Of a stretch of 64,000 nucleotides of DNA, positions 26,726 through 39,344 are shown piece by piece (the first letter of the stretch is position 1; each line of letters starts with the position of its first letter). The stretch is taken from NCBI GenBank assembly GCA_963792585.1, contig CAWBWI010000006.1, positions 160,001 through 224,000 on the forward strand, read 5' to 3'. The notes under the pieces were generated by a model. That model had not been told where the DNA came from. It was given only the letters and a program-made list of their open reading frames with translations, and did no database searches. The stretch is from Candidatus Eiseniibacteriota bacterium. GTDB taxonomy: Bacteria > Eisenbacteria > RBG-16-71-46 > CAIMUX01 > VGJL01. The position numbers and the translations under genes were made by a program.

Positions 26726-26755
26726 AGGCGGATCCCGACCGGGGATCCGCCTTTT
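26726..26755 (+). terminator. Intrinsic terminator after korAB
   Basis: AGGCGGATCCC-GACCG-GGGATCCGCCT followed by TTT. Confidence 0.75.
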
Positions 26756-26912
26756 GCGCGCTCCACGAAAACCAGTCCAACCCTTCATCCGGAGTCAACG
26801 ATCTTTGTTCTCCCTTAACAGTCATCCGCTAGGGTCCGGAATCATTGGGTGCGTAGAACTCGAGACGAACCGTGTGTGGTTCACGGTTTCTTCACAAAGG
26901 GAGGGATATCCG

Positions 26913-28046
26913 ATGGTTTCCAGGAAGTTGACGGCCGCGATCTTCCTGCTTCTGACGGGGTGCGCGACTGCGTCCGCGTGGGCGGGCGAGCCGGTGGAGG
27001 GAAAGAACAACAAGGTGACCTTCGATGGTCTGGTCTGGGCGGGATACAAATACGTCCTCGAGGATGCGAGTCCCACGAACGAGCAAAAGGACTTCAATGC
27101 CTTCGCCCTCGACCGGGTTTACCTGACGCTGACGAGCCAACTGGCCGAGCGGTACACGGCGCGCGGTCGCGTCGAGATGGGAAACCTGAACGCCGGCACG
27201 CCGACGGCTTTCGTGAAGACCGCGGACATCCAGGTGGCCGATCCTTTGGGGGCCAAGGGGACGAAGCTGCGCTTCGGGCAGACCGAGGGAGTCGTCACCA
27301 ACTTGTACGAGAAGATGATGGGTTACCGGATCGTGAGCAAGGTTCCGACGGAACGCTACCTCGGGATCGGCTCGACGTACCTCGGGGCGGGGTGGGCCGG
27401 AAAGTGGGCGTCGGGCATGCTCGAGACCGACCTGCTTGTCGCCAACCGGGTGGCCTATGCGAACGACATCGCTGAGGGCGGAAAGGCCGACCCGAAATTC
27501 AAGACCTTGAGCGCCCGCGCCTATCTCCGCCCGATCAAGGAGGGCGCGGCGAAGGGTCTCGGTCTCGGCGGCTATGCTCAGTACGCCCCGCGAGCCATCC
27601 CGTCGGGTGACAACAACGATCTGTGGTTCGGCGGCCACGCTTACTTCGAGGCTTCGAGGGGGACCTTCGGGCTGGCCTACGACACAAAGAAGACGACGGC
27701 GGCAGGCGAAGATGTGACGGCTGCGGTCATCACCGGCACCGGGCGCTATGGCGTGTCCGACAAGGATGCGCTCTTCGCCCGCGTCGATCTCGTCGATTTC
27801 GACAAGGACCGCAGCGACGTCACCCTCGCGGAGGGCGCGAAGGTCTCCGACGCAATCGACAAGAAGCTCGCGCAGACCGTCGTGATGGCGGGTCTCGCCC
27901 ACTCGTACTCCAAGACGCTGCGGAGCATCGTCGATGTCTCGGCCCGCAGCTTCCAGGACAAGCTCTACGGCCCGTCTCCCGCGGGCGAGGAAATCAAACC
28001 GGACACCGAGTTCGTGATCACCGTGCGACTCGACGCGACGCTTTAG
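26913..28046 (+). CDS. Putative outer-membrane beta-barrel porin (OprO/OprP-like)
   Basis: GGAGG RBS and signal peptide ending ASAWA. FNAFALDRVYLT and LRFGQ motifs, alternating amphipathic strands and a C-terminal strand ITVRLDATL. Confidence 0.7.
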   Translation: MVSRKLTAAIFLLLTGCATASAWAGEPVEGKNNKVTFDGLVWAGYKYVLEDASPTNEQKDFNAFALDRVYLTLTSQLAERYTARGRVEMGNLNAGTPTAFVKTADIQVADPLGAKGTKLRFGQTEGVVTNLYEKMMGYRIVSKVPTERYLGIGSTYLGAGWAGKWASGMLETDLLVANRVAYANDIAEGGKADPKFKTLSARAYLRPIKEGAAKGLGLGGYAQYAPRAIPSGDNNDLWFGGHAYFEASRGTFGLAYDTKKTTAAGEDVTAAVITGTGRYGVSDKDALFARVDLVDFDKDRSDVTLAEGAKVSDAIDKKLAQTVVMAGLAHSYSKTLRSIVDVSARSFQDKLYGPSPAGEEIKPDTEFVITVRLDATL

Positions 28047-28122: not shown

Positions 28123-28665
28123 CTAGTTGTTCGGGAACAGGTAGAAGTGGAAGCCGAGGCTGGAGATACCGAATGCCTCGGAGCCCAGGGTCGTCGAGCT
28201 GTCCGAGCCCTTGGTGCCCGGGTCATAGCTCTGGAAAGCGATGCCGTGGGCGACCTGCAGGCTGAAGCGGTTGGAGAAGAAGTGCTCCACACCGAGGGAG
28301 CCGCGAATCCGGATCGTCGTCGAGCTGTCGTCGGCGTTGACCGGATCATTGGCAAACTCGAAGCCCGGGCGGATGAAGAAGAAGGTGTTGTCATCGCTCG
28401 CGACGACAAACGGAACGCCCGCCTCGAAGGTGAAGCCGGTCTTCGTCTCGGTGTTGCCCTCGAGGTCCGTGACGATTTCCCGCTGCGAGAAGCCGATGCC
28501 GATGTCGAGAGCGGCCTTCGGCGTGAGCCAGTAGCGGATGCCGACCGGAGCGTCCGGCGTGAAATAGCCCGGCCCCCACATGCCCTTCATGTCCTTGGCG
28601 GCCGCCGGGCCGACGAGCGCCAGCGCGAGGGCCAAAACGCTGAGTACGAGAACTGCCTTCTTCAT
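28123..28665 (-). CDS. Small outer-membrane beta-barrel protein (8-stranded OMP-like)
   Basis: GGAGGAG RBS and signal peptide MKKAVLVL...AAA. Strands GIRYWLT and LGVEHFF, with C-terminal LGFHFYLF. Confidence 0.8.
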   Translation of the reverse strand: MKKAVLVLSVLALALALVGPAAAKDMKGMWGPGYFTPDAPVGIRYWLTPKAALDIGIGFSQREIVTDLEGNTETKTGFTFEAGVPFVVASDDNTFFFIRPGFEFANDPVNADDSSTTIRIRGSLGVEHFFSNRFSLQVAHGIAFQSYDPGTKGSDSSTTLGSEAFGISSLGFHFYLFPNN

Positions 28666-28798
28666 CGATCTCCTCCGTGGTTGGAGCGGCCCAGACTCCG
28701 AGCCGGACCGCCTGCTCTTGCAGATGCCGAATTGCCTCTGCATCCTCTTTCGAACCGCACAGATCCCCCTCCAGACTTCGAAGGGCAAAATCGGATCT

Positions 28799-31991: not shown

Positions 31992-33041
31992 TTGAGCGAG
32001 GAGCAGCAGAAGCGGCTCACCGAAATGGCCGCCTGCGCGGGCTGAGCTGCGAAGATCGCTCCAGGGGACCTGGAGCAGGTACTCGCGACCCTGCCACGCA
32101 CGAAGAACCCTGATCTCCTCGTGGGGACCGAAACCCACGACGATGCGGGAGTTTTTCGTCTCTCGCCGGAACTTGCGTTGATCCAGACCGTCGACTACTT
32201 CACCGCAATCGTCGACGACCCATACACCTTTGGTGCGATCGCGGCGGCCAATGCCCTGTCCGACGTCTACGCCATGGGTGGCGTGCCGCGGACGGCCCTG
32301 AACATCGTCGGTTGGCCCCAGGGACAGCTCCCGTGGGAGGTCCTCGGGCAGATCCTCCGTGGCGGCTACGACGTCGTCCACGAATCGGGCGCCGTCCTCG
32401 CGGGCGGCCACTCGGTGAAGTCTCCTGAGCTCTTCTACGGACTCTCGGTAACCGGGACGATCCATCCCGATCGGATCGTTACGAATGCGGGGGCCAAGGT
32501 CGGCGATCTGCTTTTCCTGACGAAGCCGCTCGGCACGGGAATCCTCTCGACGGCCCTGAAGAAGGGCACGCTCGAGCCCGAACTCCTGACCATCGCCACG
32601 GCGACGATGCGCCGGCTCAACGCGGGCGGCGCGCGCGCGATGGTGTCGGTCGGCGTGAGCGCCGCGACCGACGTCACCGGCTTCGGATTCCTCGGCCACC
32701 TCCTCGAGATGGCCCGCGGGGCGGGCGTGACGGTCGAGATCGACGCGGCTCATGTTCCCGCGCTCCCGGGCGCGCTCGAACACGCCCGTGCGGGTGACAA
32801 ACCGGGTGGGCTCACATCGAACCGGCGTTACGTCGAATCGAGTATCCAGGTCGACGGCGGAGTCGATCCGGCCGTCCTCGACCTGCTCTTCGACCCGCAG
32901 ACTTCGGGCGGTCTGCTCATCTCCGTCCCCGAAGCGAAGGCCGATCTGCTCTCCGCCGCCCTGCTCAAGGAGGGGATCGCCGATGCCGCACGGGTCGGGA
33001 GGATTTCCGGTACCGGCCCCGGCTCCATTCGGGTCCGGTGA
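31992..33041 (+). CDS. selD: Selenide, water dikinase SelD (selenocysteine-containing, TGA at 32043-32045)
   Basis: TTG start after an AGGGAG RBS gives ...RLTEMAACAG-U-AAKIAPGDL, in frame with the 32121 ORF (DDAGV, QTVDYFT, ANALSDVYAMGG, GGHS, LTKPLGTG, TDVTGFGFLGH, DPQTSGGLL). Confidence 0.95.
32058..32076 (+). promoter_or_regulatory. Bacterial SECIS element of selD
   Basis: GCTCCAGG-GGA-CCTGGAGC, a perfect 8-bp stem starting 12 nt after the in-frame TGA, with a G-starting apical loop. Confidence 0.8.
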
Positions 33042-37543: not shown

Positions 37544-38321
37544 TGCACCTCAACACTTTCGATTCTGAAGAGAATATGCCCATCGAGAGTGCCCTTCAGG
37601 GGGTTGCCTCTCGACGTCGTCCCTCGAAATCGCCTCTCCAAGCCGCCCTCAGATTCGCCCTTCGAGTCCGCCCCTAGAGTTCGATACTAGCCGCCCCTGA
37701 CCGGGAAATCCGCCAGGGAACGCCCCGGAAAGATAGGGACAAAGTCGTATTGACGAAGGTGATTCCATAAGGGCAAAGCGGGCGGCGTCAGGAGTCGACA
37801 GGATGTCTCGTTCCCACAAGGGAACCCTCCCGACCAGGGCCTTGGTAGGTTCGGCCCAGCGCCTGATCGGCCCAGAACATCTTCTGATCAAGATACATAA
37901 GACTGCGCTCGAATTCCAGCGGAGGCGTGGCATGAGTCGCGGTAACTGACCTATGAATAACAGGTTACCGATAACAGCAACAAGAACGATTTGAGTTGCA
38001 CCTCCTGACATTCCGGCCGTAAGATGCTTGGTCACGATCCAAGCGGATCGTCCTCGATCCTCGAGCGTGATCGGCATGCTAGAGGCGACGAGGCTGCCTC
38101 CAACGAGGGGACCCGATGCGCAGAGTCATCCAGATCTCATGGGAACGGCTCCCGTTCACCTGAGTGCGTTGCCAATCGCGGCAGCGTGACTGCGCCTCGT
38201 TGAACCTCTAGCCCCCACATCGCGCCCCTTCGGTTCACTTCGCGCCACCCTGCCGCTCTCTTCGCCGGGTCCGCCGAAGTCATGAAACCTAAGACCTAAC
38301 CAAAGGGGAGACGAAACCGTC

Positions 38322-39344
38322 ATGAACAGAGCATGGATACTGTTGCTACCGCTGGTTCTCATGGGGGTGCCCATTCGCGCGCTCGCCGGCGGCTGTGGCT
38401 GAGTGCCCGTCTCGCTCCCCGTTGGGGAGCAGATCACGACCCACATCCCCGGTACGCTCCGGGCCGGCTACGGATTCGCCTATTCGGATACCGATCACTA
38501 CTACATCGGCGAGGAGCGCGATGCACCGACCGAGACGAATGTGGCGCCGGCCACTCTCGGCATCGAGCACATCCTCGGCCTCGAGTACGATCTGGCGCGG
38601 AAGTTCACCCTCGTCAGCGAGATCCCCTTCGTCCATACCGAGCAGAGCCGCAAGTTCGGCGGGGTTGCGGGGACCATGAAGGCAAGCGGGCTCGGCGACG
38701 TCCGCCTGCTTGCCCGTTACTGGATCTCCGACCAGAATCCCGGGCTTCGCTGGTATACCGCGATGGGGGTGCGCCTGCCGACCGGCGACTCGGACGGCAC
38801 GTTCCGCGCGAAGAACGGAATGCTCGTGACCAAGGACCTGGCCGCCCAGGCGGGGACCGGGAACCCGGCCGGGATCGTGGAGATCGGCGGCGGCGCCATG
38901 CTCGGCGATCGTATCGGCCTCGGCTTCTCGGCCCGGTACATCTTCACTCCGGATGCGACAACGGTGAACAATTTCCGCAACGAGTTGACGGGCAACGGCC
39001 CGAAGATGAACTCGGATTCGGACGCGGCAACGGCCCGTGTCAGGTTCAGTTCACCCCTGAGCATGGGGGACGGGGCCCTTTCCCGCGTGGCCGCCAGCGT
39101 CATCGCCGACGTGGCTTGGGTTCCCAACGACGATCTGATTGGTGAGACAGAAGGCTTCCGTCGTGCAGGGCCGATCGTCCTCCTAGGCCCCGGGCTCAGC
39201 TGGGCGCCACGCCAGGCCTTCGCCGTGTCGGCCGCCGTGCCGGTCGCGGTCTACAGGAACGTCCAGGAGAACGGGGGCAACGTGCAGGAGTGGATGCTCC
39301 AGCTTTCGCTCTCGTACAACATCCTGAATGGAGCAAGTCGGTAG
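38322..39344 (+). CDS. Putative selenocysteine-containing outer-membrane beta-barrel channel (COG4313/MetA-pathway-like), TGA at 38400-38402
   Basis: AAGGGGAG RBS, then ATG 38322: MNRAWILLLPLVLMGVPIRALA-GGCG-TGA, in frame with the 38403 ORF (GLGDVRLLARY, GVRLPTG, QAGTG, terminal strand LQLSLSYNI). A SECIS-like hairpin follows. Confidence 0.8.
38414..38430 (+). promoter_or_regulatory. Candidate SECIS element of the beta-barrel gene
   Basis: GCTCCCC-GTT-GGGGAGC, a perfect 7-bp stem 11 nt after the TGA, with the same flanks as the selD hairpin. Confidence 0.72.

Follow-up and report, generated by a model that had tools for sequence, protein, structure and literature searches.

An uncatalogued candidate selenoprotein of a known outer-membrane barrel superfamily, and a candidate selenocysteine-sensing leader that would tie it to a selenium/sulfur-carrier operon

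In leaders of the trp type, the progress of the ribosome at a sensitive codon sets the expression of the genes downstream; in E. coli, the SECIS-like element of selAB is bound by SelB and works without a leader peptide. Selenium-dependent coupling at a selenocysteine (Sec) codon has been shown for the fdhF(Sec) gene of Treponema primitia (available part of PMC3892789). There the codon lies inside the enzyme gene, whereas the candidate leader described below is a separate small ORF in front of the gene, with a UGA and a hairpin of its own. As for the uptake of the element, a specific high-affinity system for selenium transport has yet to be identified in any prokaryote, according to a 2026 review (PMC13188914).

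The gene behind this leader would specify an outer-membrane beta-barrel. The described channels it can be compared with are those of the COG4313/PF13557 type (Pput2725, PDB 4RL8; SphA; TcpY), to which it shows 12% identity. These are associated with aromatic catabolism, and their solved members with hydrophobic cargo (accessible text of PMC4493636), whereas the context of the present barrel is selenium-linked. It also has an N-terminal Cys-Gly-Sec, while the word 'cysteine' does not occur in the main text of PMC4493636. With respect to the amyloid secretion channel FapF (PDB 5O65/5O67), the barrel and its relatives fall far below the cut-off of the FapF model, and the barrel, unlike FapF, has neither a fap operon nor a long N-terminal extension. 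Two families of Sec-containing outer-membrane barrels appear in Table 1 of PMC13188914, GSU2204/MtrB-PioB (NF041027) and the TonB-dependent receptors of FCYXU type (NF049945). They resemble the present protein in placing Sec in an outer-membrane barrel but differ in fold and size; the barrel scored 14 bits against NF041027 (cut-off 350) and did not match NF049945. The porin-like outer-membrane protein ExtI of Geobacter sulfurreducens, the loss of which lowers selenite and tellurite reduction, is tied to cytochrome-linked reduction, and the abstract does not report it as a selenoprotein (PMC5877670).

The original prediction did not recognise the barrel as a member of any described selenoprotein family, and the catalogues bear this out. 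No NCBIfam 20.0 model covers the barrel, its relatives or the Sec-containing MetE-like protein described below; Table 1 of PMC13188914 (119 families) lists no PF13557 or MetE-like family; and no PF13557 barrel or MetE-like entry was found in the accessible parts of PMC9312934, of BSepDB and of its supplement, or in the deep-Sep supplements. Searches of the largely open-access literature returned no report of the barrel family or of a Sec-sensing leader peptide.

Selenocysteine at codon 27 of the barrel gene

In the window (the whole stretch of 64,000 nucleotides analysed), the barrel frame runs from ATG 38322 to TAG 39342-39344 and specifies 340 residues, with a single in-frame TGA at codon 27 (38400-38402). 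The surrounding sequence reads L-A-G-G-C-G-U-V-P-V-S (codons GGC GGC TGT GGC TGA). The table-11 ORF begins at GTG 38403, right behind the TGA, and has no signal peptide. On re-reading, the ribosome-binding site, start codon, signal peptide, TGA position and protein length proposed in the original prediction all held. The features are as follows:

38303-38310, + strand: ribosome-binding site of the barrel gene, AAGGGGAG, paired in the predicted fold
38322..38387, + strand: signal peptide of 22 residues, ending A-L-A (residues 20-22), read by eye
38388..39344, + strand: mature COG4313/FapF-type outer-membrane beta-barrel, 318 residues plus stop codon
38400-38402, + strand: TGA predicted to encode selenocysteine as residue 27, the fifth of the mature chain, within Cys-Gly-Sec
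38414-38430, + strand: predicted SECIS of the barrel gene, 7 pairs with a GUU loop
39426..39444, + strand: weak terminator-like stem 3' of the barrel gene
31992..33041, + strand: selD, itself a predicted selenoprotein gene (TIGR00476, over cut-off), TGA at 32043-32045, not co-operonic with the barrel

The terminator-like stem is no better than chance, since two such stems were found in the region against 1.0 expected. In this genome (G000) the barrel gene stands alone, flanked by a fatty-acid desaturase gene and by a GH94 gene encoded on the opposite strand.

The original prediction held that the UGA is read as Sec, and named the orthologues, the sequencing reads and the Sec machinery as checks. 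A DNA search of 206 genomes of the phylum yielded nine close orthologous copies in eight genomes. The Sec site is TGA in five copies (G000, G008, G013, G017 and G019) and TGC or TGT in four (G007, G010 and two in G009). Since the identical TGA recurs in four other genomes, whose barrel proteins are 59-73% identical to this one, it is not a sequencing error; in addition, the codon is covered by contigs from three public runs (one of them perhaps the source sample itself), and the differences listed, 73 others aside, all fall elsewhere. Forty-five protein-database entries matched the barrel. In 18 that are full length, a similar N-terminus with a signal peptide is followed by x-C-G-C, so that Cys occupies the Sec site in 18 out of 18. 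A further 17 start 1-3 codons past the site (15 directly after it, two two codons later), which is the truncation in databases that had been foreseen, and the remaining 10 are fragments or distant. On a quick tree the Cys and truncated forms were intermixed.

The hairpin behind the TGA gave a z-score of -2.59 over 43 nt; of the 1043 long coding-like ORFs of the genome that end in TGA, 11 fold equally well over that span, seven of them with a G in the loop. It is kept in all five TGA copies (6-8 pairs at +12 to +28, -10.3 to -13.9 kcal/mol) and gone in all four Cys copies (-4.4 to -7.0 kcal/mol), the p value from synonymous resampling being 0.01-0.10 in the former versus 0.14-0.71 in the latter. 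Its geometry is the same as that of the hairpin after the selD TGA, a likeness already pointed out in the original prediction. The genes selA, selB and selD and tRNA-Sec are all present in this genome, along with numerous further selenoprotein-like genes; tRNA-Sec and selB were also found in the other four TGA genomes, selA in G019 being a fragment only. Taken on Cys/Sec alternation, a SECIS tied to the TGA state and the Sec machinery, UGA27 is almost certainly read as Sec via the hairpin at 38414-38430, in an exported COG4313-type barrel with a flexible N-terminal Cys-Gly-Sec. That the TGA is instead a true stop (the gene being a pseudogene), a sequencing error or a Trp codon is extremely improbable: the Sec reading does rest on comparison of sequences, but the TGA occurs in five genomes with the frames intact on both sides, the 18 full-length homologues have Cys there, and the hairpin follows the TGA.

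In the structure model the barrel has about 12 long strands (by our own reading of the DSSP list), as does the 12-stranded 4RL8, which was, together with FapF, its best structural match; this agrees with the COG4313-type barrel proposed at the outset. The barrel itself gave no match to Pfam PF13557, the gathering cut-off of which three relatives pass (P0002, 95% identical to the barrel, P0010 and P0023). Model residues 10-312 align on residues 2-268 of the 4RL8 chain, and this superposition, from residue 10 on, suggests an N-terminal segment folded into the lumen. The model does not place the Cys-Gly-Sec that the original prediction took for a luminal plug, since mature residues 1-6 have a pLDDT under 50 and the superposition on the N-terminal segment of 4RL8 begins only at residue 10.

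More distant barrels also show such motifs. Two distant paralogues, L025 (G008:C55) and L020 (G124:C157), have a TGA at the first Cys (Q-G-U), and many of their database relatives start just behind Q-G-U, which suggests a widespread hidden selenoprotein group. In many distant PF13557-like barrels of the phylum (L069-L089) the signal peptide is followed by C-G-[SA]-E-x-C-P or G-C-C, in every case with Cys.

A UGA-containing leader and the operon it precedes

Alignment of the DNA upstream of six loci revealed a conserved block: an ORF of exactly 15 codons, closed by a TGA and with R-x-P-F-T as its last residues, and then GCGGCAG-x-G-x-G-x-CTGCG. Upstream of the barrel it comprises:

38116..38163, + strand: leader ORF, ATG and 15 codons ending R-L-P-F-T, TGA at 38161-38163; candidate Sec-sensing leader
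38164..38190, + strand: alternative hairpin right after the leader TGA, in which the leader-SECIS 5' arm is paired instead
38164..38211, + strand: read-through continuation of the leader, ending at TAG 38209-38211; neither its length nor its frame is conserved
38178..38195, + strand: SECIS-like leader hairpin, GCAG/CTGC stem with a single bulge and a G-containing loop, stem at +17/+18
38250..38256, + strand: CTGCCGC element, complementary to the leader-SECIS 5' arm; the C-rich tract around it can pair with the ribosome-binding site as well

Pattern and covariance-model searches found 11 copies of the leader in eight genomes, the 15-codon length and the TGA being invariant. They precede all nine barrel copies, whether Sec or Cys, and the barrel-less operons of G007 and G009, with one match per place and none elsewhere above noise. 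Rfam gave no match to the leader, and the scan found none before the G000 operon (see below) or before selD. The second stop lies at +12 to +66 after the leader TGA, and two copies are 1 nt shorter; since the frame past the TGA is not conserved, the downstream block would be RNA rather than peptide. A GCAG/CTGC core also occurs in the hairpin of E. coli fdhF, there at +16. Five of the seven pairs of the leader hairpin are invariant in 10 out of 10 copies, and covariation is lacking because these pairs never vary; RNAalifold preferred another pairing. The alternative hairpin beat shuffles of the first 13 nt at p < 0.06 in six of the 10 copies, though not in the other four, and the duplex between the 5' arm and an element of CTGCCGC type, at +85 to +99, reached -14.7 to -18.0 kcal/mol in six, being weaker in four. 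In nine of 10 copies, with one tie, opening the ribosome-binding site was 0.3-3.6 kcal/mol cheaper with a ribosome at the leader UGA than with one past the hairpin, a small and weak trend that may be trivial. Several copies have a poor ribosome-binding site of their own. The invariant TGA is weak evidence when taken alone, since TGA is the commonest stop (1043 of 1929 in this genome) and the eight genomes are kin from one order. All in all, the block upstream of the barrel is probably a Sec-sensing leader.

Four genomes, G008, G010, G017 and G019, have the barrel as the first gene of an operon that continues with a TusA-like gene, a DsrE family gene, a TusA-OsmC fusion and a MetE-like gene (PF01717); in G013 the barrel is followed by a TusA-like gene, where the contig ends. 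Barrel and operon lie apart in G007, G009 and G000, the operon of the latter being:

G000:C5:179139-181664, minus strand: TusA-DsrE-TusA/OsmC-MetE-like operon (loci L028, L029, L030, L031, L092-L094)

In nine genomes of the barrel's order, eight of them with the sequence listed, the MetE-like gene contains an in-frame TGA, at R-T-F-M-U-A, and in the 12 other genomes matched this position is Cys. At G009:C28:35748-36918 the gene for the MetE-like selenoprotein looks split in the assembly by a frameshift at the Sec codon. The TusA-like YedF and YedE are predicted selenium-handling genes (accessible part of PMC9312934); no yedE or selD neighbours were seen at the barrel and operon loci, and YedE was not found in G007 or G017.

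A second leader, unrelated in sequence, has the same two-hairpin layout: a short ORF ending G-F/Y-G-TGA, with a GGGTGGCGGG block. In other orders it precedes Cys-type MetE operons, in six of the six regions scanned, out of nine. The loose scan used fires in 47 of 400 control regions; the second-leader pattern gave nine matches in the 206 genomes versus two for its control (loci L096, L097, L100-L103, L181-L189). Six of the nine are Cys-type MetE operons, and one, in G064, heads the same kind of first gene as those operons. Another precedes a Cys (PCGC) UshA-like multiheme gene in G089 (PCGU family, E 6e-46, below cut-off), and the last a secreted protein without a family in G008. Among the genes of the Cys-type MetE operons behind this leader are one of acyl-CoA-dehydrogenase type and one for a binding protein that weakly matches a putative selenate-binding model. 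The finding of Cys versions of selenoproteins behind a UGA leader fits induction when Sec decoding is slow or selenium short.

Proposed function and its alternatives

The Sec codon, its SECIS, the fold, the common leader and the operon linkage are established by comparison; we infer the cargo, the chemistry and the direction of control. As the leader appears to sense selenium supply upstream of the barrel, the barrel becomes a candidate entry port for selenium compounds. A ribosome would translate the 15 leader codons and reach the UGA before the SECIS-like hairpin; whether Sec-tRNA arrives there would decide which of the alternative RNA pairings forms ahead of the ribosome-binding site, so that the time the ribosome dwells at the UGA would report Sec-tRNA supply. 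The common leader would govern the TusA-DsrE-TusA/OsmC-MetE(Sec) operon, headed by the barrel in four genomes, and the module would be switched on when Sec decoding is slow. At the cell surface, the Cys/Sec pair may bind an incoming selenol, diselenide or other organoselenium compound, possibly selenite, by thiol/selenol exchange and pass it inward, where the MetE-like zinc enzyme and the TusA/DsrE carriers would process it.

We regard the whole explanation, in which the barrel, with its Sec, leader and cargo, would be the outer-membrane entry step of a selenium-responsive module, as evenly poised between right and wrong. That the cargo is selenium is a possibility about which we are somewhat doubtful, and equally tentative is the fuller proposal of a dedicated selenium-compound channel, capturing with its own Cys-Sec pair and serving as the entry of a selenium-scavenging regulon (barrel, TusA/DsrE and Sec MetE-like enzyme) under the UGA/SECIS leader. 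Several facts count against it. The barrel and the MetE-like enzyme themselves need Sec, which would be odd for genes induced by its shortage, and four of the nine barrel copies have Cys and keep the leader. In G000 the barrel is separate from the operon, before which the scan found no leader. The lack of covariation in the leader hairpin, the kinship of the eight genomes, the lack of yedE or selD neighbours, the hydrophobic cargo of solved COG4313 members and a Cys/Sec segment that the model does not place weigh on the same side. Among the functions offered in the original prediction, selenium handling is favoured by the UGA leader and the TusA/DsrE/MetE(Sec) operon, while the neighbourhoods of the subfamily lend no support to redox gating or heavy-metal uptake.

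The same selenoprotein and leader might serve another end, expression being allowed only when selenium is present so that no truncated selenoproteins are made, with an organosulfur or hydrophobic cargo destined for the MetE-like selenoenzyme. The regulated genes in the barrel's order do include two selenoproteins, TusA, DsrE and OsmC are generic sulfur carriers, COG4313 channels carry hydrophobic molecules (accessible text of PMC4493636), and read-through of the Sec codon raises downstream transcription in T. primitia fdhF (available part of PMC3892789). However, the leader is retained before the Cys barrels that stand alone in G007 and G009, which have no need for Sec, and the second leader precedes Cys-only operons and the Cys UshA-like gene; we consider this explanation unlikely, if worth keeping in mind. 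Binding of soft metals (Cu, Hg, Ag) by the N-terminal Cys-x-Sec of a metal pore is distinctly unlikely. N-terminal motifs of the form CGxExC or CACGCG do occur in distant relatives within the phylum, and one plasmid relative adjoins a TlpA gene, but no metal-resistance genes were recognised beside the subfamily loci (by eye, some neighbours being scanned), and the leader links the barrel to selenium status and to the carrier/MetE operon.

TnaC exemplifies the ordinary arrest peptide that the leader might be, its UGA being a plain stop and the signal some other metabolite, in which case the Cys-Sec of the barrel could form a structural or redox-gating bond. In favour of this, the leader keeps R-x-P-F-T while its Arg and Pro codons vary synonymously, there is no conserved coding past the UGA, the tract downstream is C-rich, and the stop is of the commonest kind in the genome. 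Such a peptide would leave unexplained an invariant fdhF-like hairpin at SECIS distance, a set of targets made up of selenoproteins or their Cys forms, and an unrelated leader with the same UGA and two-hairpin layout before homologous operons, and it is therefore highly unlikely.

With selenium as the cargo, the locus is a named, testable candidate for the outer-membrane selenium step, with a predicted switch and partner genes. Even with another cargo it would add a selenoprotein family that is truncated in databases, a second uncatalogued selenoprotein (the MetE-like one) under the same leader, and a natural candidate Sec-sensing leader that a simple reporter could test.

Some further observations concern the rest of the genome. 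Near selD, the window contains two more outer-membrane barrel-like genes (26754-28046, + strand, and 28123-28788, - strand), with weak Porin_4 and OMP_b-brl matches, below cut-off. At G000:C3:1187450-1188582 a match to an EF-Tu-like translation GTPase is in three pieces, possibly through assembly errors. A read-through scan of the genome returned Prx-, TlpA-, SelW-, rhodanese-, HesB-, AhpC- and MerB-like TGA candidates, named by eye from their motifs. Secreted or thioredoxin-like U-x-x-C candidates with SECIS-like hairpins were seen, again by eye, at G000:C6:968110 and 900851 (minus), C1:242644 (minus) and C3:1081711 (minus).
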